From: an uncultured Candidatus Saccharibacteria bacterium
Lineage (GTDB): Bacteria; Patescibacteriota; Minisyncoccia; Phycocordibacterales; JAACPR01
Assembly: GCA_964630375.1 (NCBI GenBank)
Contig: CAZVRT010000001.1
Span: 135,379 to 199,378, forward strand
Length of the DNA: 64,000 nt
Direction: 5' to 3'
Under the pieces are notes generated by a model. The model was not told where the DNA came from, did not search any database, and was given only the letters and a program-made list of their open reading frames with translations. Within the stretch, counting starts at the first letter, position 1; every line of letters begins with the position of its first letter. Both the position numbers and the translations under genes were made by a program. This document shows, in pieces, positions 5,216 to 50,678 of the stretch.

Positions 5216-6247
5216 TTAATTAACATTAGTCCACTCACTTTTTTCTTTATTTTTGCTTAAAAATATTTTTCTAAAAATTTGGCTGCCGACAATTCCAATC
5301 ACTAAAGCAATTCCGTAAAATGCGATGAGTTGTGAAAATGAAAACGGAACATTTTTTGCAAAACCTAAAAAGAATACTGTGTACCAAGATACGAAAGATA
5401 TTGCACCAGACGCAAAAGCAATATGACTCAGGTTGATTGTTCTCTTCACATCAACACCGCTAGTTTTCCAAGAAATGCTTAGAAGTTTTGGAGTTATAAA
5501 AAGATTCAACAAAAATCCGTTCAAGATGATTATTCCTATGATAATTATTTTTGTTAAAAATTTAGCGCTGGCTAAAAGAGTTGCCGCTTGCGGAATAAAT
5601 AATCCGATGCCTGAAATAATTACAAGCAGAAGTCCGAACCAAACTATTTGAGACATAAGCTTTAGAACATCGCTTTCTTCTTTTGTAATTTTGAAATCTT
5701 TTAAGAATCTCAAAAACAAAACATCGCTGATTGTTGCACCACCAACTCCAAGAGCAAATCCAAGCAAATGCAGAAGTGTTATATATGATTGATTTTCCGC
5801 CAGTATCGGAGCAAAAGAAAATCCTGAAATTGAAACTCCAATCATTGAGAAAATGAAAATCAAAGTTGAAATTCCTGCGGACATTAGACACCAAGAACAC
5901 CAAATTCTAATTACGAACGCTTGAATAAAAGTCAGATATATTGAAAACAAAAATGCGGCGATAGAAATTGTGGTGATTGAGAAAATAAATAATTCAGTGC
6001 CGATTGCAGGGAAGAGAATTAAACTTAAATAACTCAATGTGATAATTCCATAATAAATAGCACCGTAAATTTCCAAACCGATTCCCAAAAAACTAGAATA
6101 GTCGCTGGTAATAACACTGTCGCAGTCTGCATTAAAAGGACACACAAGAGGTTTTTTCTTGTGCTTCTTTTTATAAATTCTGATTGTGATAATAAAACCA
6201 ATTAAAGCTGCGAGCGTGATTAGTGAATAAATGATTAACATAATCAA
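5216..6247 (-). CDS. Vitamin K epoxide reductase (VKOR) family membrane protein with extra C-terminal TM domain
   Basis: CPFNADCDS loop and CSWC (CxxC) in a TM helix near the N-terminus, as in VKOR. Poly-topic membrane protein of 343 aa. Confidence 0.5.
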   Translation of the reverse strand: MIMLIIYSLITLAALIGFIITIRIYKKKHKKKPLVCPFNADCDSVITSDYSSFLGIGLEIYGAIYYGIITLSYLSLILFPAIGTELFIFSITTISIAAFLFSIYLTFIQAFVIRIWCSWCLMSAGISTLIFIFSMIGVSISGFSFAPILAENQSYITLLHLLGFALGVGGATISDVLFLRFLKDFKITKEESDVLKLMSQIVWFGLLLVIISGIGLFIPQAATLLASAKFLTKIIIIGIIILNGFLLNLFITPKLLSISWKTSGVDVKRTINLSHIAFASGAISFVSWYTVFFLGFAKNVPFSFSQLIAFYGIALVIGIVGSQIFRKIFLSKNKEKSEWTNVN

Positions 6248-37392: not shown

Positions 37393-39111
37393 ATGCAGGA
37401 AAGAATAAAAACGGTAATAAAAGACATAATTACAGGGCTTGGTTTGGAGCAAGTTGATTTTGTTGTTGAACACCCTGCGGATTTATCTTATGGAGATTAT
37501 TCTACAAATGTGGCGATGATTCTTTCAAAAAAACTTGGGAAAAGTCCGATTGAAGTTGCTAATGATATGCAAAAAGGTCTGGAAGCAAGTTTTAATGGCG
37601 ACATCGAAAAAGTAGAAATTGCTGGTCCGGGATTTATAAATTTTTATTTATCAAAAAAGTTTTTTGAAGAAGCTGTTCAAGATGTAATTAATCAAGGAAA
37701 AAATTACGGACAAAATAATCACTTGGAAGGACAAAAAACAATTATTGAGTTTACTGATCCTAATCCTTTTAAGGCATTTCATATCGGACACATGATGAGT
37801 AATTTTATAGGTGAAGCTCTTTGCAAAATTTCTGAATGGAACGGTGCTGAAGTGAAGCGAGCGATTTATCAAGGTGATGTTGGATTGCATGTAGCGATGG
37901 CTGTTTGGGGGATGGTACAAAATCGAGCTGGGTTTCCTAGTGATAATGATTCTTTGGATATGAAAGTTCGTTTTCTTTCAAACTCTTATGCTTTTGGAGC
38001 GACTGAATATAAAAGAGATGAACGAGCAAAAAAAGAAATTGAGGTAACTAACAAAATGATTTTTGAGAAATCAAATCATGAATTGAATATTTATTATGAA
38101 AAAGGAAAGAAATGGAGTTTGGAAGCATTTGAAGTAATTTACAAAAGACTTGGAACAAAATTTGATTTTTACTTTTTGGAAAGTGAAAGTGCAGAGTTCG
38201 GGAAGCAAACTGTTTTAAGTAATATTGAAAATGGAATTTTTGAAGTTGGTGAAGGTGGTGCGGTAATTTATAAAGGAGAAAAACATGGATTGCATACTCG
38301 AGTTTTTATAAACTCAATGGGACTTCCGACATACGAAGCTAAAGAACTTGGTTTGGCGAAAATTAAATCAGAAACTTACGAATACGATCGCTCGATTGTT
38401 ATAACTGCAAGTGAGCAAAACCAATATTTCAAAGTTGTGTTGCAGGCGATGAATGAAATTTTTCCTGATTTGGCTTCAAAAACAACTCACATGTCTCATG
38501 GAATGTTGCGACTTCCGTCTGGAAAAATGAGTTCTCGAACAGGGGATGTTATTACGGCAGAACAATTGATTGAAGATGTGCGAACAAAAGTTGCAGAAAA
38601 AGTTGCTGAAAGAGATTATGATGACGTTTTAAAAGAAGATGTTATTGAAAAAGTCGCACTTGGTTCTCTTAAATATTCAATTTTAAAACAAGCAATTGGT
38701 CGTGACATTATTTTTGATTTTGATAAATCACTTTCTTTTGAAGGTGATTCTGGTCCGTATCTTCAATACACTGCTGCGCGTTCAGCTTCGATTTTGAGAA
38801 AGGCGGAAGCCGAAGGATTTTCTGCATTTGGCGGCGCTCAACCTGAAGAGTGGGAAGTAACAAACGTTGAAAAAATTATAAATAGATTTCCTGAAGTCGT
38901 AAAAGAATCTTACGAAGAACTTGCACCGCAAAAAATAATTTCTTATCTAACTGAGTTGGCGAGTGAATTTAATAGTTTTTATGGTTCTCATAAAATTGTT
39001 GATACGGAAGATTTGGCAACACCCTACAAAATTGGAATTACACAATCAGTGCTTATTGTATTGGAAAACGGAATGGAAATTTTAGGAATGCAGCTGCCAG
39101 AAAGAATGTAA
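37393..39111 (+). CDS. argS: Arginyl-tRNA synthetase
   Basis: TDPNPFKAFHIGH class-I HIGH motif in ArgRS context, with an N-terminal Arg_tRNA_synt_N-like domain and C-terminal DALR-type helical domain. 572 aa. Confidence 0.85.
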   Translation: MQERIKTVIKDIITGLGLEQVDFVVEHPADLSYGDYSTNVAMILSKKLGKSPIEVANDMQKGLEASFNGDIEKVEIAGPGFINFYLSKKFFEEAVQDVINQGKNYGQNNHLEGQKTIIEFTDPNPFKAFHIGHMMSNFIGEALCKISEWNGAEVKRAIYQGDVGLHVAMAVWGMVQNRAGFPSDNDSLDMKVRFLSNSYAFGATEYKRDERAKKEIEVTNKMIFEKSNHELNIYYEKGKKWSLEAFEVIYKRLGTKFDFYFLESESAEFGKQTVLSNIENGIFEVGEGGAVIYKGEKHGLHTRVFINSMGLPTYEAKELGLAKIKSETYEYDRSIVITASEQNQYFKVVLQAMNEIFPDLASKTTHMSHGMLRLPSGKMSSRTGDVITAEQLIEDVRTKVAEKVAERDYDDVLKEDVIEKVALGSLKYSILKQAIGRDIIFDFDKSLSFEGDSGPYLQYTAARSASILRKAEAEGFSAFGGAQPEEWEVTNVEKIINRFPEVVKESYEELAPQKIISYLTELASEFNSFYGSHKIVDTEDLATPYKIGITQSVLIVLENGMEILGMQLPERM

Positions 39112-39167: not shown

Positions 39168-39527
39168 ATGAGTTCATTGTTTTCTGAATTGCCGGAAATT
39201 TTCGTCTGCAAAGACGGAGATTTGTTAACTTGTGAAAAACAAAACGAGGATTGGACTTGGCTGAAGGCCGAGTTCACCTACAACGAAAGTGGAGAAGTGA
39301 CTCAATGTCGTTTCGTAAGGTTGGATGAGAATTATCGCCCAACCGGACAGCGAATCGATGAGCTTCTTCAGGCTTCTTCTGACGAGCATGATGGGCAGAT
39401 GGCCTTGGCTGCTGTCAAAGCTTTTTATCATTACGATAAGATTTGCAAACATGCTTCACAAGCCAGAGACGTGCTAGTGGCTCACGGGTATCCTGTGGAA
39501 GAAAATGAAGTGTTTTGTGGGATTTAA
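39168..39527 (+). CDS. Hypothetical protein (GC-richer codon usage)
   Basis: 119-aa ORF with its own GC-rich terminator and no recognisable motif. Confidence 0.35.
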   Translation: MSSLFSELPEIFVCKDGDLLTCEKQNEDWTWLKAEFTYNESGEVTQCRFVRLDENYRPTGQRIDELLQASSDEHDGQMALAAVKAFYHYDKICKHASQARDVLVAHGYPVEENEVFCGI

Positions 39528-39609: not shown

Positions 39610-40053
39610 ATGAGTGACACACCTGAGTACATACTAGACATTGATTCTCCTAAAAAATGGAGAAATCAGAAACCCCAAGATGAATCTGTGCTAGATTCTT
39701 TCACCAGAATTCCTGAGGAAGTTTCAGAAGAAGTCCGTTTGGAAATCGAACGAATCACAAGAGTGGTAATACACCAAGAAGTTGGAAAAATTTCATTTTA
39801 CGTTTTTACTACCAGCAGAGAATGGATAGCTCAGAGTTTTTCTGATGATGGAAATCATTTTGAAACATACTTACTTTCTGAAGATCCAAACTTTGAACCG
39901 CCTGGTCATGATGTTCCTTATTTCAGAACTTGTCCGCAGGTCAGGAGTATTGCAATCAGGATTTGCAAGGATTATATTTTTGGAAATGTTCGTAGAGATC
40001 ATTTCTGCGAAGCTTGGCAAAAGTTTTGCCGCTCTGGTTTCAAAAGCGAATAG
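39610..40053 (+). CDS. Hypothetical protein
   Basis: 147-aa ORF, followed by a short hairpin gcgcctctgagcgc plus T-run (40059..40077). Confidence 0.35.
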   Translation: MSDTPEYILDIDSPKKWRNQKPQDESVLDSFTRIPEEVSEEVRLEIERITRVVIHQEVGKISFYVFTTSREWIAQSFSDDGNHFETYLLSEDPNFEPPGHDVPYFRTCPQVRSIAIRICKDYIFGNVRRDHFCEAWQKFCRSGFKSE

Positions 40054-40119: not shown

Positions 40120-43100
40120 ATGACAAACGAGGCAGATGAAACTAACAAAAGTCAAATAGCTCAAAGAGAAGAAAAAATTCTAGAATTTTGGAATCAAAAT
40201 GAAATCTTTAAAAAATCTTTAGAAAAAGAAGCTAAAAATGGCGATTTTGTGTTTTTTGATGGACCTCCTTTTGCAACAGGAATGCCACATTATGGACACC
40301 TTCTTCCTGGGACTGTGAAAGATATTATTCCTCGTTACAAAACCATGAACGGATACAGAGTGACTCGTCGGTGGGGTTGGGATACTCACGGTCTTCCAAT
40401 CGAAAATCTAATTCAAAAAGAAAGAGGTCTTCAAACAAAACAAGATATAGAAGATTTTGGAATTAAAAATTTTAATGAAGCTGCTAGAGCCAGTGTTTTT
40501 CGGTATTTGGATGAGTGGAAAAAAATTATTCCTCGAACTGGTCGTTGGGTAGATTTTGAAGACAACTACATCACAATGGATTCTAAATATATGGAATCTG
40601 AATGGTGGATGTGGAAGACACTTCATCAAAACGGTTTGGCTTATGAAGGTTTTAAATCAATGCATATTTCTCCTTTGCTTGAAACCGCACTTTCAAACTT
40701 TGAAGTAAATCAAAATTACAAAGACATTACAGATTTATCGGCAACTGTAAAATTTGAGTTAGTGGACGAAAAGGGAACTTTTGTTTTGGCTTGGACAACA
40801 ACTCCTTGGACGCTTCCGGGGAATGTCGCATTGGCGATAAATAAAAATCTTTCTTATATAAAAGTAAAATCTGAAAATGAATTTTATATCGTAGCAAAAG
40901 ATTTAGTTGAAAAAGTTTTTGAAGGAAAAGAATATGAAATTATTTCAGAAATTTCTGCCGAAGATTTGCTTGGAAAAAAATACACTCCACCTTTCAATTA
41001 TTTTATAAACGATCCTAATTTAGAAAATCGTGAAAATGGCTGGAAAATTTATCACGGAGATTTTGTGACAACAGAAGATGGAACGGGAATTGTGCATATT
41101 GCTCCAGCTTTTGGTGAAGATGACTTGAATTTAGGTAAAGAAAATAATTTGCCGTTTGTTCAACATGTAAAAATTGATGGAACAATAAAACCAGAAGTAA
41201 AAGAATTTGCAGGACTTCAAGCAAAACCAAAAGAAGATCCGATGCAAACTGATATTGAGTTTGTAAAATATTTGGCTCACAACGGATTTTTGTTTAGCAA
41301 GAAAAAATACACTCACTCATATCCGCATTGTTGGAGAACTGATGCGCCACTTTTGAATTATGCGATGTCTTCTTGGTACATCAAGGTAACTGATTTGAAA
41401 GACAAAATTGTTAAGGAAAACGATAAAATAAATTGGTCGCCTGACTTTGTTGGGAAATCTCGTTTTGGAAATTGGTTGAAAGACGCTAAAGATTGGTCTG
41501 TTTCTCGTGCGCGATTTTGGGGAACACCGATTCCGGTTTGGAAATCAGAAGATGAAAGTGAGATTGCAATAATTGGTTCAGTTGATGAGTTAAAAGAAAA
41601 AACAAAAAGTTCAAATACTTTTGTCGTGTTGCGACATGGAGAAGCTGATCATAATTTAGAAAATAAAGCTTCTGATAGTGATAATCCGCCAAGTAACCTA
41701 ACTCAAAGAGGAAAAGATGACATTGCAAGAACTGCAGAAAATTTTACAGGAGAAACTTTTGATTTAATTTATTCTTCACCTTTAATCAGAACAAAAGCCA
41801 CTGCGGAAATCATTGCAGAAAAAATTGGTTATCCGAAAGAAAATATTATCTTTGATGAAAGAATTGCAGAAGTGAAAACTGGTTTTGATGGACGTCCAAT
41901 TTCAGAATATCGAAATTATTTTTCTTCAAATTTAGAAAAATTCGAAAAAGCTGCGCCAGGTGGAGAAACTCTTTTTGAATTAAAAAAACGAGTTGGAAGT
42001 TTTTTGAAAGATATTGATTCTCAAAATGTTGGAAAGAAAATTTTGGTTGTAACTCACGAATATGTAACTTGGATGATGGTCTCTGCAAATGAAGGTTTGA
42101 ATGTGAAAGATACAGTTGCAATAAAAAATGACACGGAAGATTTTATCGAAACAGGGAAGACTATCGAGTTCGTTCCAAATCGGTTGCCTGTAAATGATAA
42201 TTTTGAAGTCGATTTGCATCGACCATATATTGATGATGTCGTTTTCATGCAAAACGAAAAAATAATGAAAAGAATTCCAGATGTTTTTGATACTTGGGTT
42301 GATTCTGGATCAGTTCCTTTTGCTTCGAATTTTTATCCAAAAAATAAAGAAAGATTTAATCCAGATTCAGGTTTGTTTAAAAAATCAATAAATTATCCAG
42401 CTGACTTTATTTCTGAAAGTTTGGATCAAACACGAGGTTGGTTTTATTCTTTGATTGTTTTGAATACTGCTTTGTTTGGGCATTCTCCTTATAAAAATGT
42501 TGCGGTGACTGGGCTTGTATTGGCGGAAGATGGAAGAAAAATGTCTAAAAGTTTAAAAAATTATCCGGAAATTGATTCTGTTTTAAATAAATTTGGTGCT
42601 GATGCTATGAGATATTATTTAATGTCATCTCAAGCAGTGAAAGCTGAGTCGCTTTTATTTTCAGAAAAAGGTGTTGATGAAGTTTCAAAGAAATTGATTG
42701 GTCGTTTAAACAATGTGCTTTCTTTCTATGAAATGTACAAACATGTTTTGGGAAATGAAAAAGCAAATGAAAGTAAAAATGTTTTAGACAAATGGATTTT
42801 ATCTCGTCTTTCAGAATTGAAAGAACAAGTTACAAATTCTTTAGATAATTACGAAATCGACAGAGCAACTCGACCTTTCATGGATTTTGTTGATGATTTA
42901 TCTACTTGGTATATTCGTCGTTCTCGTGACAGATTTAAAAATGAATCAAGTGAAGATGATCAAGAAAATAATGATGCAAAATTTGCAGCTGCGACAACAA
43001 AATTTGTTTTGAAAAATTTATCAAAACTAATGGCTCCTTTTACGCCTTTTATTGCTGAAGAAATTTATCAAACGCTAAAAGATGAGGGTGATGTGGAAAG

Positions 43101-43596
43101 TGTCCATTTGGAATCGTGGCCGGAGTTGCAAAAAGTTGATGAAAAAATAATTTCAGAAATGCAAACTCTGCGGGAAACTGTGACTCGTGCTCTGGAAGAA
43201 AGAACAAAAGTTGGTATAAAAGTTCGACAACCGCTCTCTTTGGTAACTTTGAAAAAAGAAGAATTGAAAAACAAAGATGATTTGTTGGAAATTTTGAAAG
43301 ATGAATTGAATGTAAAAAATGTTGCATTTGATTCTGCTCAGGAAAGTGAAGCTGTTTTAGACACAAATATTTCAGAAGAATTGAAGTTCGAAGGAAATGC
43401 AAGAGAATTTATTCGCTCAATTCAGCAGCTCCGAAAAGAGGCAGGATTACAGCCTTCAAATGAAATTAAAGTTTTTGCACCGCAAAAAATCGAGACAGAA
43501 ATCGGAAACTTTAAAGAAGAAGTTAAAAAAATGGTTCGAGCTACGGAAATAGTTTTCATCGACACGGAAGCAATAAAAATTCAAAAACTTTCTTAA
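40120..43596 (+). CDS. ileS: Isoleucyl-tRNA synthetase (type 2, eukaryote/archaeal-like) carrying an inserted histidine-phosphatase-like domain
   Basis: PPFATGMPHYGHLL (HIGH), GRKMSKSLKN (KMSKS) and a CP1 editing region. The segment between WGTPIPVW and DLHRPYIDD...DTWVDSGS holds an extra ~230 aa containing VVLRHGEADHNL, SSPLIRTKATAEII and LVVTHEYV. Total length is 1158 aa. Confidence 0.9.
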   Translation: MTNEADETNKSQIAQREEKILEFWNQNEIFKKSLEKEAKNGDFVFFDGPPFATGMPHYGHLLPGTVKDIIPRYKTMNGYRVTRRWGWDTHGLPIENLIQKERGLQTKQDIEDFGIKNFNEAARASVFRYLDEWKKIIPRTGRWVDFEDNYITMDSKYMESEWWMWKTLHQNGLAYEGFKSMHISPLLETALSNFEVNQNYKDITDLSATVKFELVDEKGTFVLAWTTTPWTLPGNVALAINKNLSYIKVKSENEFYIVAKDLVEKVFEGKEYEIISEISAEDLLGKKYTPPFNYFINDPNLENRENGWKIYHGDFVTTEDGTGIVHIAPAFGEDDLNLGKENNLPFVQHVKIDGTIKPEVKEFAGLQAKPKEDPMQTDIEFVKYLAHNGFLFSKKKYTHSYPHCWRTDAPLLNYAMSSWYIKVTDLKDKIVKENDKINWSPDFVGKSRFGNWLKDAKDWSVSRARFWGTPIPVWKSEDESEIAIIGSVDELKEKTKSSNTFVVLRHGEADHNLENKASDSDNPPSNLTQRGKDDIARTAENFTGETFDLIYSSPLIRTKATAEIIAEKIGYPKENIIFDERIAEVKTGFDGRPISEYRNYFSSNLEKFEKAAPGGETLFELKKRVGSFLKDIDSQNVGKKILVVTHEYVTWMMVSANEGLNVKDTVAIKNDTEDFIETGKTIEFVPNRLPVNDNFEVDLHRPYIDDVVFMQNEKIMKRIPDVFDTWVDSGSVPFASNFYPKNKERFNPDSGLFKKSINYPADFISESLDQTRGWFYSLIVLNTALFGHSPYKNVAVTGLVLAEDGRKMSKSLKNYPEIDSVLNKFGADAMRYYLMSSQAVKAESLLFSEKGVDEVSKKLIGRLNNVLSFYEMYKHVLGNEKANESKNVLDKWILSRLSELKEQVTNSLDNYEIDRATRPFMDFVDDLSTWYIRRSRDRFKNESSEDDQENNDAKFAAATTKFVLKNLSKLMAPFTPFIAEEIYQTLKDEGDVESVHLESWPELQKVDEKIISEMQTLRETVTRALEERTKVGIKVRQPLSLVTLKKEELKNKDDLLEILKDELNVKNVAFDSAQESEAVLDTNISEELKFEGNAREFIRSIQQLRKEAGLQPSNEIKVFAPQKIETEIGNFKEEVKKMVRATEIVFIDTEAIKIQKLS

Positions 43597-43597
43597 T

Positions 43598-44194
43598 ATG
43601 CATCATATTTACGAAACAAACGCTTTTGTTTTAAAAAATGTTCCGCACGGAGAAGCTGATTCTTTGCTTACAATTTTTACTGAAGATTTAGGAGTTGTTT
43701 TAGCGACCGCACAAGGAATAAGATATGAAAAATCAAAATTGCGTTTCGCTACGCAGAAGCTTTCGCTTTGTAGAGTTTCTCTTGTTCGTGGAAAGGGAAT
43801 GTGGCGATTAACGAATGCAGTTCCAATCGAAAATAATTATTCTAATTTGGATTCAGAGATAGTTTGTGCAATTTCTAGAATTTTTAAACTTCTCGAGAGA
43901 CTAGTTGCGGGCGAGTCATCAGACTCAAAACTTTTTTCAATTTTGCAATCAGGTGTTGAGTATTTAAAAAATATTCAAAATGAAAAAGATTTAAACAAAG
44001 AATTAATTTTAGACATCGAAGCTGTGATTGTTTTAAGAATTTTAAATCGCCTTGGTTATATTGGTTCAGATGAGCGCATAAATTTTTATGTTCTAAACGA
44101 AAATTGGGAAGGGGAGATTTTCGATAAAATGAAACAAGAGCGACGCGATGCTCTAAAAGCTATAAATGCTGGAATTCGGGAAAGCCAACTTTAA
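43598..44194 (+). CDS. recO: DNA repair protein RecO (short form)
   Basis: N-terminal OB-fold AFVLKNVPHGEADSLLTIFTEDLGVV matches the RecO N-terminus. ATG overlaps the ileS stop. Confidence 0.55.
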   Translation: MHHIYETNAFVLKNVPHGEADSLLTIFTEDLGVVLATAQGIRYEKSKLRFATQKLSLCRVSLVRGKGMWRLTNAVPIENNYSNLDSEIVCAISRIFKLLERLVAGESSDSKLFSILQSGVEYLKNIQNEKDLNKELILDIEAVIVLRILNRLGYIGSDERINFYVLNENWEGEIFDKMKQERRDALKAINAGIRESQL

Positions 44195-44230: not shown

Positions 44231-46180
44231 ATGGATCCGTTGGATTTAAGTGGTTCAAATTCAAATAATAATTCGCCAGACAAAAGTCGTGTCACGAAGC
44301 TTCAAGAGAAGTTGTATTCTCCAAATACTCAATTTCAAATTCGTGCCAGACAAAATTTAAAAAGACCAACAAACGATATTCCTGAAGCTTGGGAAGATTT
44401 AGAAAAAGATAGTTTCTCAAAAGAATTGGGAAGAACAAAAACTTCGGTTTTTACAAAAATTGTTTTGGTAGCTTTTGTGTTTTTTATCGCTTCACTGGGA
44501 TTCGCTTTTTATAAATTTAGCGGAAGCAGTGCAAATAAATATTCAAGCACTGTTGATATAACAGTTGTCGGACCTGTTGCAGTTGGAGGAGGGGAAGAAT
44601 TATCTCTTGATATTATTATTCAAAATAAAAATCCATTTCCACTTCAAACCGCCGATATTGTAATTGAGTATCCTGAGGGAACAAAAACTGCTGATTTGCA
44701 AAACGATATGCCAAGAATGAGAGTTGGAATCGGAGATGTAGAACCGAATTCAGTTGTAAAAAAGACTTATACCGCAGCCTTGTTTGGTGAAGAAGGTGAA
44801 AAAAAGGAAATTGAAGCACGAATCGAATATCGAGTTCCAAACTCTAATGCAATTTTTGAAAATAAAAAATCTTTTGACTTAGTTTTACAATCTTCGCCTG
44901 TGAGAATTGTAGTTGATACAGTTAGGGAAATTACTTCTGGGCAAGCTTTGAATTTTGATGTGACAGTTTCTTCTAATTCAAACAGCGAGTTAGAAAATGT
45001 TTTGGTAACAGCAGAATATCCATTTGGTTTTACTTTTTCTGAATCAACAATTCCACCCACAACAGGAAATAATGTTTGGTTTTTTGAAAAATTATCTCCT
45101 CAAGAATCAAAGAAGTTTAATGTGCGAGGTTCTGTGATTGGGCAAAACAACGAAGAAAGAGTTTTCAAATGGAATATTGGTTTGGCTGATGCAGAAAATA
45201 AAAATGATTTCAGGGTGAAATTTACAACAGTTGCAAAATCAATGACGCTGATTCGTCCATTTTTGGCTATGGAATTGGCGGTTGATGGAGATTTTGGTGT
45301 TGATTTGATTAGACAAGGAGGAAGACAAATGAATGGAAGACTAACTTTCACAAATAATACTGGAAGTGTGATTGTCGATCCTAGAATTATTTTGAAAATG
45401 GACGGAGAAGTTTTGGATGATCCGACAGTTACAGTTGAGGGTGGTTTCTTTAATTCGAGTGATAACACAATTACTTGGGACAAGGTTACAAATCCAAGCA
45501 TGTTTAAGGAACTTGCAGTTGGTCAATCAGAAACTTTAAACTTTAATTTTACTTCAAAACAATTAGCGACAAGACAAGCAGTTTTCAAAAATCCTGAAAT
45601 TGTTATGAGCGCTGCAATCACAGGAAAAAGAGTGGGAGAAGATTCTGTGCCTGAAGATATTAAAGTTGATGTTGCGAAAAGAATTAAATTCCAATCGTCT
45701 GTGGGTCTTTCATCTAATATTTCGAGATCAAGTGATATCTTTATCCAATCAGGTCCAATTCCGCCCAAAGTTGAACAAGATACAACTTACAATATAACTT
45801 TAAGTTTAAGTAACTCTTCAAATCTTTTGCAAAGAGGAAAAGTGAGAGCAACTTTGCCGCCATATGTAAGATGGAACAATGCTGTATATCCGGATTCTGA
45901 AAAAATTACTTTCATGCCGTCTTCAAGAACAATTGAATGGGATTTGGGAGAAGTTCGAGAGCACGTTGGGCATATTGATCCTGCAAGAAGTGTAACTTTC
46001 CAAATAACTCTTACTCCATCTTCAACTCAAATTGGACAGTCTCCGGCACTTTTGATTGAACCTACATTTACTGGGTTTGATTCGTTTACTAATTCAGAAG
46101 TTACTACTTCTGCGCAAGCTCCAACAACTTCACTTGGACAAGGTTTGGCTGAGACAGAAAATTCGGTGGTTGTGCCTTAA
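44231..46180 (+). CDS. Large membrane-anchored surface protein with repeated beta-sandwich (CARDB/DUF11-like) domains
   Basis: Cytoplasmic N-terminus of ~70 aa, one TM helix, then ~560 aa of repetitive Thr/Ser/Val-rich beta-strand-like segments. Confidence 0.45.
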   Translation: MDPLDLSGSNSNNNSPDKSRVTKLQEKLYSPNTQFQIRARQNLKRPTNDIPEAWEDLEKDSFSKELGRTKTSVFTKIVLVAFVFFIASLGFAFYKFSGSSANKYSSTVDITVVGPVAVGGGEELSLDIIIQNKNPFPLQTADIVIEYPEGTKTADLQNDMPRMRVGIGDVEPNSVVKKTYTAALFGEEGEKKEIEARIEYRVPNSNAIFENKKSFDLVLQSSPVRIVVDTVREITSGQALNFDVTVSSNSNSELENVLVTAEYPFGFTFSESTIPPTTGNNVWFFEKLSPQESKKFNVRGSVIGQNNEERVFKWNIGLADAENKNDFRVKFTTVAKSMTLIRPFLAMELAVDGDFGVDLIRQGGRQMNGRLTFTNNTGSVIVDPRIILKMDGEVLDDPTVTVEGGFFNSSDNTITWDKVTNPSMFKELAVGQSETLNFNFTSKQLATRQAVFKNPEIVMSAAITGKRVGEDSVPEDIKVDVAKRIKFQSSVGLSSNISRSSDIFIQSGPIPPKVEQDTTYNITLSLSNSSNLLQRGKVRATLPPYVRWNNAVYPDSEKITFMPSSRTIEWDLGEVREHVGHIDPARSVTFQITLTPSSTQIGQSPALLIEPTFTGFDSFTNSEVTTSAQAPTTSLGQGLAETENSVVVP

Positions 46181-46204: not shown

Positions 46205-47587
46205 ATGATAAATGACAAGATGGAAAAGATAGTTTCTCTGGCAAAACGCCGTGGTTTTATATTTCAAGGTTCTGAAATATATGGTGGATTGGCTGGTATT
46301 TATGATTTTGGACCTCGAGGAGTTGAGCTTCTAAATAATATTAAGCAAGCTTGGTGGAAAGCTAATGTTTACGATAAAGAAAATTATTTTGGAATTGATT
46401 CTGGAATGTTTAAGCACCCTAGAGTTTGGGAGGCCAGTGGTCATACAAAAGGTTTTTCAGATCCATTGGCTGAATGTAGAGAGTGTAATACAAGAATTCG
46501 TGTCGATAAAGAATTGGCAAAGATTGGTGTTGTGGCGGATGAGAAAATGTCTGAGGATGAAATCAATCGTCTTTTTGATGAAAACAGAGAAAAAATTTCT
46601 TGTCCAAAGTGTGGTAAGAAAAACTTTACACCTGCTAAGGCATTTAATTTGTTAGTAAGATCAAACTTGGGTGATTTTACATCGGAAGGGGGTGAACCAG
46701 TTTATCTTCCAGGAGAAGCGTGTCAGGGTATTTATTTAAATTTTAAAAATGTTGTAGATACTTTACAACCAAAAATTCCTTTTGGTATTTCTCAGATTGG
46801 TAAAGCATTTAGAAATGAAATCTCGCCGAGGAATTTTCTTTTTAGAACTCGTGAACTGGAGCAGGCAGATACACAATATTTTGTAAGACCAAATGAAAAT
46901 AAAGAGGCTTACGAGAAAATAAAACAAAATCGGTGGGACTGGTATAAATCTATAGGAATAAAAGAGGAAAATCTTCGCTGGAAACAGCATGATAATTTAG
47001 TTTTTTATGCTAAAGACGCTTGGGATATAGAATATAATTTTCCTTCTTTGGGTTTTGATGAGTTGGAGGGTATTCATGATCGTACGGATTATGATCTTAC
47101 TCAACATATGAATTTTTCTGGAGAAGATTTAAGATATTTCGATCAGGAAAAACAAGAAAAATACATACCTTGGATTTTAGAAACTTCAGTTGGACTTGGA
47201 AGATTGTTTCTGGCTGTAATTTCAGATGCATATTACGAAGATGAAATGGATGGTGAGACTAGAGTTGTTTTAAGATTATCTCCAAAATTAGCACCAATAA
47301 AAGTCGCAGTGTTTCCACTTTTGAAAAATCGACCTGAACTTCAAGAAAAAGCTCGAGAAATTTATCAAAAAATCAGAAAAGAAATTCCGCAAACAGTTTT
47401 TGATGATAACGGAAATGTTGGAAAGAGATACCGACGACAAGATGAAATCGGAACTCCTTTCTGCATTACGATAGATTTTGAAACTCTTGAGCAAAATGCA
47501 GGCATAACAGTCCGCGCCCGCGACACAGGACAGCAAGAAAGAATTTCTGAAGATGAAATTGTAAATTATTTGAAAGAAAGATTGTAA
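46205..47587 (+). CDS. glyQS: Glycyl-tRNA synthetase (dimeric alpha2 type)
   Basis: KRRGFIFQGSEIYGGLAGIYDFGPRG (motif 1 region), class-II motifs and a C-terminal anticodon-binding domain. 460 aa. Confidence 0.85.
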   Translation: MINDKMEKIVSLAKRRGFIFQGSEIYGGLAGIYDFGPRGVELLNNIKQAWWKANVYDKENYFGIDSGMFKHPRVWEASGHTKGFSDPLAECRECNTRIRVDKELAKIGVVADEKMSEDEINRLFDENREKISCPKCGKKNFTPAKAFNLLVRSNLGDFTSEGGEPVYLPGEACQGIYLNFKNVVDTLQPKIPFGISQIGKAFRNEISPRNFLFRTRELEQADTQYFVRPNENKEAYEKIKQNRWDWYKSIGIKEENLRWKQHDNLVFYAKDAWDIEYNFPSLGFDELEGIHDRTDYDLTQHMNFSGEDLRYFDQEKQEKYIPWILETSVGLGRLFLAVISDAYYEDEMDGETRVVLRLSPKLAPIKVAVFPLLKNRPELQEKAREIYQKIRKEIPQTVFDDNGNVGKRYRRQDEIGTPFCITIDFETLEQNAGITVRARDTGQQERISEDEIVNYLKERL

Positions 47588-49232: not shown

Positions 49233-50678
49233 ATGTCAGAAAAAAAATCGTTTTATATAACAACAACGCTTCCTTATGTTAATTCAAAACCACATATCGG
49301 TTTTGCTATGGAAATTGTTCGCGCAGATGCTCTTGCTCGTTTCAAAAGAGAAACTGGTTTTGATGTTTTTTTCAACACAGGAACAGATGAACACGGAGTA
49401 AAAATTTTTGAGAAAGCTCAAGAAAATGGAAAAAGCACTCAAGATTATGTTGATGAGATGTCTGAACATTTTAAAAATCTGAAAGAAGTCTTGAATTTAT
49501 CTTTTGATAATTTTATTAGAACAACAGATGCAAATCATATAATCGCGGCACAAGAATTTTGGAAAAAATGTCTAGCTAACGGATATATTTATAAAAAAGA
49601 ATATTCAGGTTTGTATTGCGTAGGGGATGAAATGTTTGTGAAAGAAAAAGATTTGGTAGATGGACGATGTCCAAATCATCCGACGCAAGATCCAATCACC
49701 TTAACAGAAGAAAATTATTTTTTTGCGTTTTCTAAATTTTCAGAAAAACTTTCAAAATATTTTGAAGAAAATCCAGATTTTGTTGTGCCAGGGTTTCGTT
49801 TAAATGAAATGAAGCAAATGATTGCAGATGGTTTGGAAGATTTTAGTATTTCAAGAATTAAAGAAAAAATGCCGTGGGGAATTTCAATTCCGGATGATGA
49901 GGATCAAGTGATGTATGTTTGGTTTGATGCGCTTGTAAATTATATTTCTGCGGTTGGTTGGCCAAATGATGAGGAGAAATTCAAAAAATATTGGACTGAT
50001 GCTACACGAGTGCAATTTTGTGGGAAGGACAACACCCAACATCAATCTCTGCGATGGCAAGCAATGCTTTTTGCCGCTGGGTTGCCGAATACCAATCATG
50101 TAGTTGTGAGTGGTTTTATAAATTCCGGCGGACAAAAAATGTCTAAATCTATTGGAAATATAATTGAGCCTTTAGATATTGTGCAAGAATATGGTGTTGA
50201 TGCGCTTCGTTATTATCTTTTGAGAGAAATTCATCCTTTTGAAGATAGTGATGTTACTCCTGAAAAAATTAAAATTGCCTACAACGCAAATCTTGCAAAT
50301 GGTCTTGGAAACTTGGTAAACAGAATTCTAAAAATGTCAGAAGACAATTTAGAAGGGAATTTCAACTTTAACAGCTCTTTTGAAAATTTGCCCGCAAAAT
50401 ATTTGCAAGCTTTCGAGAAATTTAATTTTCAAGAGGCAATGGATTTTATTTGGAAAGAAATTTCTGATTTAGATCAAAAAATTCAAGACACACAACCGTT
50501 TAAGTTGATAAAAGAAAACCCAGAAGAAGCGAAGAAAATTATTTACGAACTAGTTGAAAAATTATTTAATATTGCTACACTTCTCAAGCCATTACTTCCT
50601 GATACATCCGAGGCAATTATTTCAGCAGTGTTAAAAAACAAAAAACCGGAAGCCCCTTTATTTCTTAGAAAAGATTAA
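49233..50678 (+). CDS. metG: Methionyl-tRNA synthetase, minimal form without C-terminal tRNA-binding domain
   Basis: TTTLPYVNSKPHIGFAME (HIGH-like) and GQKMSKSIGN (KMSKS). Only 481 aa. Confidence 0.85.
   Translation: MSEKKSFYITTTLPYVNSKPHIGFAMEIVRADALARFKRETGFDVFFNTGTDEHGVKIFEKAQENGKSTQDYVDEMSEHFKNLKEVLNLSFDNFIRTTDANHIIAAQEFWKKCLANGYIYKKEYSGLYCVGDEMFVKEKDLVDGRCPNHPTQDPITLTEENYFFAFSKFSEKLSKYFEENPDFVVPGFRLNEMKQMIADGLEDFSISRIKEKMPWGISIPDDEDQVMYVWFDALVNYISAVGWPNDEEKFKKYWTDATRVQFCGKDNTQHQSLRWQAMLFAAGLPNTNHVVVSGFINSGGQKMSKSIGNIIEPLDIVQEYGVDALRYYLLREIHPFEDSDVTPEKIKIAYNANLANGLGNLVNRILKMSEDNLEGNFNFNSSFENLPAKYLQAFEKFNFQEAMDFIWKEISDLDQKIQDTQPFKLIKENPEEAKKIIYELVEKLFNIATLLKPLLPDTSEAIISAVLKNKKPEAPLFLRKD

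Follow-up and report, generated by a model that had tools for sequence, protein, structure and literature searches.

A branch-1 histidine-phosphatase domain nested in the CP3 subdomain of type-2 isoleucyl-tRNA synthetase in a lineage of uncultured bacteria

The isoleucyl-tRNA synthetase gene (ileS) in a 64,000-nucleotide stretch of DNA from an uncultured Candidatus Saccharibacteria bacterium (assembly GCA_964630375.1, contig CAZVRT010000001.1, positions 135,379 to 199,378; hereafter the window) encodes two enzymes in one polypeptide. The additional domain is a branch-1 histidine phosphatase, apparently active as judged from its residues, and it is nested inside the CP3 subdomain of the isoleucyl-tRNA synthetase (IleRS), between the two halves of that subdomain. 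This architecture is not specific to the window; it is a clade-wide trait of a large lineage of the candidate phyla radiation (CPR; Paceibacteria/Patescibacteria). Both components are well known, and the combination of IleRS with a histidine phosphatase is undescribed in the literature that was found. Considering the conservation and genomic setting of the insert, we lean towards a catalytically active phosphatase that is functionally coupled to IleRS. Aminoacyl-tRNA synthetases (aaRS) are among the most conserved enzymes, and their extra domains are mostly non-catalytic, terminal and found chiefly in eukaryotes. Here, an apparently active and unrelated enzyme is located in a surface loop of the catalytic core of an essential bacterial synthetase, and it has been kept throughout a very deep lineage, rich in species, whose members are uncultured and depend on hosts.

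The host protein is a type-2 IleRS with intact synthetic and editing motifs. The NCBIfam model for ileS (TIGR00392) scored 852.3 bits against a cutoff of 621.4, while the valS and leuS models remained under their cutoffs. In the Pfam analysis of the open reading frame (ORF), tRNA-synt_1 was matched in two separate stretches (E=1.7e-126), followed by Anticodon_1 (E=7.9e-35) and DUF5915 (E=2.2e-13). Comparison with structures by phmmer gave E-values of 1e-182 to 4e-213 for type-2 or eukaryote-like chains (8wnd, 4e-213; 8c8u, 1.8e-211; 1ile, 5e-182) versus 1.4e-97 (1ffy) and 2.6e-94 (8c9e) for type-1 chains, and Foldseek likewise ranked type-2 above type-1 IleRS for the predicted model. This full-length AlphaFold2 model, built from an alignment of 114 sequences, reached a mean predicted local distance difference test score (pLDDT) of 92.1 and a predicted template modelling score (pTM) of 0.85. 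It matched the IleRS structures 8c8w, 8wnd and 1ile with target-normalised template modelling (TM) scores of 0.81-0.91 (E=2e-83).

All motifs quoted in the first-pass annotation of this DNA for a type-2 host (PHYGH, KMSKS and the CP1 editing region) were found in the order in which it had listed them. In the 114-sequence alignment, at least 90% conservation was observed for each of P56, H57, G59 and H60 of the HIGH signature, for T226-T231 of the threonine-rich editing motif (WTTTPWTLPGN at aa 225-235), for H326 and D335 of the HxAPxxGxxD editing motif (HIAPAFGEDD, aa 326-335) and for K807, M808 and K810 of KMSKS. The isolated editing-domain structures 1wk8 and 1wny were also matched by phmmer. 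The protein thus shares its fold, HIGH and KMSKS signatures, CP1 editing motifs, and anticodon-binding and C-terminal domains with the type-2 (eukaryote/archaeon-like) enzymes of the mupirocin-insensitive type, including Priestia megaterium IleRS2 (8c8u/8c8w), the Thermus thermophilus enzyme (1ile) and yeast IleRS (8wnd, 7d5c).

The insert was recognized by the Pfam family His_Phos_1 (PF00300) over aa 502-666, well above the gathering threshold (101-105 bits vs 21.7; E=9e-29 and 5e-30), as the profile check suggested with the first annotation had anticipated. In the alignment to yeast IleRS (8wnd), residue 497 of the query pairs with chain residue 494 and residue 697 with chain residue 498; aa 498-696 thus form a clean insertion, some 200 aa long, that makes up the phosphatase. 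The proposal of an in-frame insertion between WGTPIPVW and DLHRPYID was borne out by both the ORF and this alignment. The length of about 230 aa given with it was too high, and the span of 41585-42280 was slightly wide on both sides and off frame by one base (codon 489 starts at 41584).

In yeast IleRS, CP3 corresponds to residues 459-526, and the preceding CP2-CP3 linker, 453-ARDWNVSRNRYWG-465, lines the pocket taken by the CCA end of the tRNA (PMC7955072). The phosphatase of the window protein starts about 30 residues past the equivalent linker, after the two strands and one helix (aa 473-494 in the AlphaFold2 secondary structure) that form the N-terminal half of CP3. The chain resumes with DLHRPYID (aa 698-705) and DTWVDSGS (aa 724-731). 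CP3 is structurally variable between IleRS enzymes and carries a Zn motif in Thermus (PMC7191050). In known type-2 enzymes it is small, about 60-70 aa (PMC7191050, PMC7955072), whereas a 200-aa enzyme domain is nested there in the window protein. The distance from the WGxP motif to HRPxD is accordingly 239 aa, compared with 42-46 aa in IleS proteins without the insert, in agreement with the earlier statement that this site is normally short. The guanine-cytosine (GC) content is equal inside and outside the insert and uniform across the junctions; no meaningful direct or inverted repeats and no insertion scar were detected at its borders.

The complete branch-1 catalytic set that had been proposed (R505, H506, R557, E584 and H646) is present in the expected order. 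These residues lie within the motifs RHGEAD (aa 505-510), SSPLIRTK (552-559), DERIAEV (579-585) and VVTHEY (643-648). Conservation was assessed in an alignment of 278 sequences, comprising 277 family members and the window protein, in which each of the five residues is kept in at least 98%: R505 in 276/278, H506 in 277/278, R557 in 275/278, E584 in 270 of the 275 non-gap sequences and H646 in 275 of the 276 non-gap sequences. N512 is kept in 260/278. The median identity in the same alignment is 36% for the insert and 50% for the flanks. Judged by this pattern, the catalytic set Arg505, His506, Asn512, Arg557, Glu584 and His646 is under strong purifying selection.

In this superfamily, a phosphoryl group moves to the RHG histidine, an acidic residue protonates the leaving group, and the phospho-histidine is hydrolysed. 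In the insert, the phosphoryl group of the substrate would be transferred to His506, Glu584 would protonate the leaving group, and the phospho-His506 intermediate would then be hydrolysed. Structure prediction, which had been proposed as a further check, indicates that the insert is a self-contained folded domain, with block-mean pLDDT values of 92-97 within the full-length model and a pLDDT of 96.3 and pTM of 0.92 when modelled alone.

Within the histidine phosphatases, the predicted fold of the insert is nearest to the small-molecule phosphatases PspA, PhoE and CobC, and not to SixA. The catalytic Arg-His, Arg, Glu and His are identical to those of PspA (4ij5), PhoE (1h2e), GpgP (6s2q), CobC (6e4b) and a riboflavin-pathway HFP (9mmh), and the cap is similar in size (62 residues from Glu584 to His646, in the PhoE/PspA range). 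Identity between these capped branch-1 phosphatases and the insert is 20-26%, and the known ones are free-standing, whereas this one is nested in IleRS or genetically locked to it. SixA is without a cap subdomain, and just 134 residues align.

The first-pass description as PGAM/SixA-like was therefore correct at the level of the superfamily (PF00300, E=9e-29) and did not hold for either subfamily. The SixA model TIGR00249 gave 34 bits against a cutoff of 74.5, and the dPGM equivalogs also remained below their cutoffs (dPGM_arch 61 bits vs 225, GpmB 43 vs 261, pgm_1 28.6 vs 81.7); the 62-aa segment between the glutamate and the second histidine is of phosphatase size and also counts against dPGM membership. 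The PspA and CobC models were not reached either (57-61 bits vs 350 and 68-73 vs 163, respectively), so the likeness to these enzymes is one of fold alone. For none of the specific metabolic phosphatases did the insert reach the equivalog cutoff of NCBIfam, and its top match in that collection was PRK07238 (E=1.7e-20).

These class assignments bear on the idea that the insert is a protein phosphatase, clearing inhibitory phosphorylation (e.g., by HipA-like or Ser/Thr kinase toxins) from IleRS or a translation partner. Tethering such an enzyme to its target would be sensible, and kinase toxins that act on aaRS exist (HipA on GltX, HipT on TrpS). We regard it as very unlikely, since SixA, PGAM5 and Sts are more distant in fold than the capped metabolite phosphatases and the SixA score is low. 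Furthermore, no kinase was present in the conserved neighbourhood (window, L011, L012 and L013; loci of relatives are given L numbers and proteins P numbers), and neither the insert nor P0007, its closest stand-alone relative (39% identity, locus L005), had defence or toxin matches in PADLOC.

Table 1. Positions of ileS, its nested phosphatase and associated genes. Positions refer to the window unless a locus is named; aa numbers refer to the window IleRS.
Feature	Position	Strand	Basis or remark
argS (arginyl-tRNA synthetase), 572 aa, conserved upstream neighbour	37393..39111	+	ORF
ileS ORF, 1158 aa, uninterrupted	40120..43596	+	Type-2 IleRS with nested phosphatase domain
HIGH signature, PHYGH, aa 56-60	40285..40299	+	IleRS active site
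Thr-rich CP1 editing motif, TTTPWTLPGN, aa 226-235	40795..40824	+	Motif position
CP2-CP3 linker AKDWSVSRARFWG (aa 456-468), WGTPIPVW (aa 467-474) and N-terminal CP3 half	41485..41610	+	Sequence; model secondary structure
His_Phos_1 (histidine-phosphatase) insert, about 200 aa, aa 498-696	41611..42207	+	Pfam and alignment to yeast IleRS
RHG motif: Arg505, His506 (predicted phospho-accepting nucleophile), Gly507	41632..41640	+	Conservation
Arg557, second phosphate-binding arginine (SPLxR motif)	41788..41790	+	Conservation
Glu584, predicted general acid (DERxxE motif)	41869..41871	+	Conservation
His646, second catalytic histidine (VTHE)	42055..42057	+	Conservation
C-terminal CP3 half and return to Rossmann fold, DLHRPYID...DTWVDSGS, aa 697-731	42208..42312	+	Alignment, motifs, model
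KMSKS signature, aa 807-811	42538..42552	+	Motif position
Anticodon-binding domain, aa 890-1041, followed by DUF5915 C-terminal domain	42787..43242	+	Pfam
recO, 198 aa, conserved downstream neighbour	43598..44194	+	Pfam RecO_N, E=1.7e-15
Stand-alone phosphatase gene in unfused relatives	L005 581-1147; L010 about 5531-6100; L011 6001-6585; L012 1428-2024; L013 513-1079		

The nested phosphatase was observed throughout a very large protein family. All 120 best full-length matches carry PF00300 together with IleRS domains (52-100% identity, 852-1325 aa), and the organism names among them, where given, are Paceibacterota, Paceibacteria, Parcubacteria or Patescibacteria. When 1.84 billion representatives at 50% identity were searched exhaustively with a profile, at least 150 proteins were returned at E<=1.7e-94, most of them as one continuous match running from the IleRS flank through the phosphatase into the other flank. 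The survey of IleS orthologues that had been recommended gave the same result, with the insert and both flanks present in 260 of the 285 proteins fetched. In two Candidatus Paceibacterota metagenome-assembled genomes of GTDB (L003 and L004), uninterrupted IleS proteins of 1175 and 1166 aa contain inserts 72% and 67% identical to that of the window, within the same gene order.

The sequences of the family are already public with precomputed Pfam matches. They are named "class I tRNA ligase family protein", "isoleucyl-tRNA synthetase", "hypothetical protein" and, in one case, "GNAT family N-acetyltransferase", and the first of these names hides the feature in public annotation. Rarity of the fusion, suggested by a search with the insert alone (six fused fragments, 33-47% identity), was rejected in view of the full-length and profile searches and is attributable to the limit of the word index. 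The word-indexed search with the 281-aa insert region gave 17 matches and missed more than 100 members at 52-100% identity; sparse matches from short, divergent queries in such a search are not a sign of rarity.

A split IleRS, as the short matches P0002 and P0005 and loci L001, L002 and L011 might suggest, was also considered and rejected, because these are low-coverage contigs in which neighbours such as argS are broken as well. In these three loci, ileS, argS and other genes are divided into many short ORFs, and the record name of L001 is tagged with "2x" coverage. The broken ORFs look like sequencing frameshifts and not real split genes, and frameshifts in low-coverage assemblies account for the short fused fragments of the insert-only search.

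An assembly chimera or frameshift that joined a phosphatase gene to ileS is effectively excluded as the origin of the window protein. A mis-join is conceivable in principle, since the phosphatase gene adjoins ileS in related lineages, but the insert is nested in frame with IleRS on both sides and is no end-to-end join. NCBI has a record of a protein 100% identical to that of the window (P0018), which is also present in an independent Logan assembly (run SRR16797977). The architecture is shared by over 260 homologues, which derive from many samples and were built with many assemblers. The uniform composition over the junctions also speaks against an artefact.

The gene neighbourhood connects the phosphatase to ileS in relatives without the fusion as well. 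In the window, the order is argS, two small ORFs, ileS with the nested phosphatase, recO and a DUF11 protein. The argS gene is likewise upstream in L001, L003 and L004 and in the unfused loci L005, L010 and L011, and the synteny with recO extends to L001, L011, L012 and L013. In 5/5 orthologue loci examined (L005, L010, L011, L012 and L013), a stand-alone phosphatase of about 190 aa was identified directly beside an ileS without the insert. In four of these loci it precedes ileS on the same strand, and in L005 the two genes are tail-to-tail. There, P0007 is flanked on one side by the 3' end of argS and on the other by an opposite-strand IleS gene, which lacks the insert and reads WGIPLPIWETEDGERIVVGSIKEIEAMSGQKVTDLHRPYIDD at the site. 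L010 displays argS, the phosphatase and then an ileS of 985 aa that starts 10 bp downstream. L011 comprises argS, phosphatase, ileS, a small ORF, recO and a large surface protein, and L012 and L013 the phosphatase, ileS, a small ORF and recO, followed in L013 by a 550-aa DUF7619 protein. The stand-alone gene is directly downstream of argS in L005, L010, L011 and probably L012, and in L011 and L012 a mere 2 bp separate its start from the end of the preceding gene.

A hidden Markov model (HMM) built from the inserts scored the stand-alone orthologues at 191-211 bits, as high as true inserts, versus 84-134 bits for generic His_Phos_1 proteins. Crude neighbour-joining trees, built for both the phosphatase domain and the IleRS body, interleave fused and unfused forms on long branches. 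The pattern of fusion and gene neighbourhood suggests, and we consider it rather probable, that IleRS has in this phosphatase a dedicated functional partner and not a random passenger.

The number and position of the phosphatase domains vary among relatives. Two phosphatase domains were found in eight IleRS representatives at 50% identity, and four matches in P0279; the multi-copy proteins include P0178, P0188, P0198, P0222, P0237, P0242, P0255 and P0279. Three insertion sites were distinguished. Site A, within CP3, holds the majority of inserts, including the tandem pairs of P0178, P0222 and P0198. Site B, between DxWFESG and DQTRGWF, is occupied by copy 2 of P0237 and copy 1 of P0255, whose CP3 is short. 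Site C, after KMSKS and before the anticodon-binding domain, carries the second copies of P0188, P0255 and P0242. The catalytic Arg-His, Arg, Glu and His are kept in every complete copy of the multi-copy proteins. The exceptions are the shortened fourth copy of P0279, which is cut short at the end of the protein and possibly by the end of the contig, and a degenerate, partial domain in P0276. In the third copy of P0279, Ala replaces the conserved Asn.

The retention of these residues can be set against a non-catalytic role, in which the domain would either replace the Zn knuckle of CP3 structurally or tune IleRS allosterically as a sensor that binds a phosphorylated metabolite. CP3 does vary in structure between IleRS enzymes (PMC7191050), and a sensor would also conserve the residues that bind phosphate. 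Conservation nevertheless extends beyond the phosphate-binding arginines to His506 and Glu584, extra copies also retain the catalytic residues, and stand-alone orthologues exist as free enzymes; a non-catalytic domain is accordingly most improbable.

Other domains were also observed in members of the family. P0103 (aa 285-415) and P0281 (aa about 281-413) combine the CP3 phosphatase with a GNAT domain inside the CP1 editing region; that of P0103 is of the RimL/MccE type (PF13302), and its NCBI name is "GNAT family N-acetyltransferase". P0247 contains a P-loop kinase-like domain (aa about 735-905) at site B (DCWFESG/DQTRGWF) beside the CP3 phosphatase, with a Walker A motif (GACGAGKT), weak Pfam matches to AAA_18, AAA_33 and Zeta_toxin, and a below-cutoff match to a chloramphenicol-phosphotransferase-like family. 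The presence of a kinase and a phosphatase on one synthetase recalls end-healing enzymes, in what is a single cluster.

By analogy with these GNAT domains, the phosphatase might be a target-embedded resistance module that disarms a phosphorylated natural inhibitor of IleRS. IleRS is often an antibiotic target. The idea draws on the RimL/MccE-type GNAT within CP1 of some members, on the capacity of GNATs to detoxify the warheads of aaRS inhibitors (10.64898/2025.12.02.691738), and on the similarity of the P-loop kinase-like insert of one relative to the chloramphenicol-phosphotransferase-like family and Zeta_toxin. It is pure analogy, and the links in aminoacyl-AMP mimics are diesters or phosphoramidates, in contrast to the monoesters on which histidine phosphatases normally act. 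We know of no natural IleRS inhibitor with a phosphomonoester, and a resistance role appears quite improbable.

In the main rival reading, the insert is a small-molecule phosphatase with a housekeeping role (e.g., of the phosphoserine, sugar-phosphate, ribazole or riboflavin-intermediate type) and no mechanistic tie to aminoacylation, retained inside the formerly adjacent ileS solely for co-expression or stability in a streamlined genome. The cap subdomain, of PhoE/PspA size, is consistent with such an enzyme, as is the acidic character of most inserts. The tolerance of the domain in three loops makes its geometry relative to IleRS seem loose, and an origin beside ileS offers a simple route to fusion. 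On the other side, the linkage to ileS has been held in fused and unfused form over IleRS bodies at about 38% identity, and independent insertions and duplications have occurred repeatedly into the same essential enzyme. Nesting in an essential catalytic core would also be a costly route to co-expression, and the specific metabolic-phosphatase models of NCBIfam all remained below cutoff. A housekeeping role is thus possible, though we doubt it.

For a phosphatase coupled to IleRS, which we favour, the substrate would presumably be phosphorylated, nucleotide-sized and tied to the aminoacylation cycle. The first-pass annotation had suggested a nucleotide, a phospho-protein partner or the tRNA as possible substrates. 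Our leading, though tentative, candidate is a blocked tRNA 3' end, i.e., a 3'-phosphate, a 3'-pyrophosphate or an opened 2',3'-cyclic phosphate, with the block removed before isoleucine is attached. This candidate is put forward because the insert is rooted beside the linker of the CCA pocket, because the acceptor end already shuttles between two IleRS sites, and because a documented form of attack blocks the charging of tRNA by 3'-pyrophosphorylation: toxSAS enzymes pyrophosphorylate the CCA end and thereby stop aminoacylation (10.1101/2021.04.30.441581; PMC11559606). In a more speculative version, the domain could be a third IleRS active site for the tRNA 3' end, besides the synthetic and editing sites, that heals the 3'-phosphate or 3'-pyrophosphate ends left by ribotoxins or toxSAS-type enzymes. 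If true, repair of tRNA, or immunity to toxins that target it, would be built directly into an aaRS.

Several observations weigh against this reading. The nearest structural relatives of the insert all act on small metabolites, and no branch-1 histidine phosphatase is, to our knowledge, known to be active on RNA ends. A consistent basic, RNA-binding surface was not observed, the median isoelectric point (pI) of the inserts being 5.9 and that of the stand-alone forms ranging over 4.5-10.3. The use of three insertion loops suggests that exact adjacency to the CCA pocket is not required, and the restriction of such a function to IleRS is without explanation. The check for a second ileS, without the insert, covers the 64-kb window, in which none was found.

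Precedents for parts of this architecture were identified. The closest is the curated family NF040702 (ileS_w_GNAT), in which a foreign enzyme domain also lies within IleRS. Its GNAT is located in CP1, whereas the phosphatase of the window is in CP3; the window protein scored 314 bits against a cutoff of 1999 for this family and had no GNAT match in Pfam. His_Phos_1 domains joined to nucleic-acid, nucleotide or tRNA-related machinery, as here, are found in PRK07238 (RNase H/acid phosphatase, Rv2228c type), in MutT1 with its Nudix domain (3fjy, 9cxx) and in tau55 of TFIIIC (2yn0). These three are end-to-end fusions without an aaRS and are similar at the superfamily level, in contrast to the nested domain of the window. 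No published description of an aaRS with a histidine-phosphatase domain was found in the full-text literature, a search outside which most subscription journals fall. The first-pass suggestion of an undescribed architecture therefore stands as far as papers are concerned; the feature is, however, not special to this genome, as the family is clade-wide in public databases.

The repeated re-insertion and duplication of the domain, together with an adjacent gene in sister lineages, is a classic signature of functional partnership. Since no phosphatase step in isoleucine charging is known to us, this pattern points to missing biology, for which tRNA end repair, handling of nucleotide by-products, regulation, and antibiotic or toxin resistance are candidates. 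The system is directly testable with a single recombinant protein and an H506A point mutant.

The two small ORFs between argS and ileS (39168-39527 and 39610-40053, +; 119 and 147 aa) occupy the slot of the stand-alone phosphatase in unfused relatives, and L003 and L004 also have two ORFs there. Their local GC content is 0.42-0.47, compared with about 0.33 around them. Remnants of a stand-alone phosphatase were considered and rejected, as there is no significant similarity to phosphatase, and no Pfam or PADLOC matches were found for either ORF. The first of the two has a weak homologue in L004 (27% over 111 aa).

No aaRS gene adjoins that of P0008, one of the more distantly related stand-alone proteins. 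The gene of P0010, another such relative (L009, 5426-6591), overlaps a NUDIX hydrolase gene by 4 bp, a pairing that recalls the Nudix plus histidine phosphatase of the MutT1 type. About 2 kb upstream of it are genes for a class II aaRS and a weakly matching pyrophosphatase, a suggestive arrangement in a single case.

Downstream of recO, the window encodes a 649-aa DUF11-containing protein (44231-46180, +), probably a surface protein, and a large gene is found likewise in L003, L004, L011 and L013. The DUF11 gene is followed by that of a class II aaRS (46205-47587, +; tRNA-synt_2b and HGTP_anticodon, 460 aa). Further downstream, a 481-aa ORF (49233-50678, +) resembles class I aaRS weakly (E=8e-10 against the body of IleRS), and aaRS genes are abundant in this region of the window.

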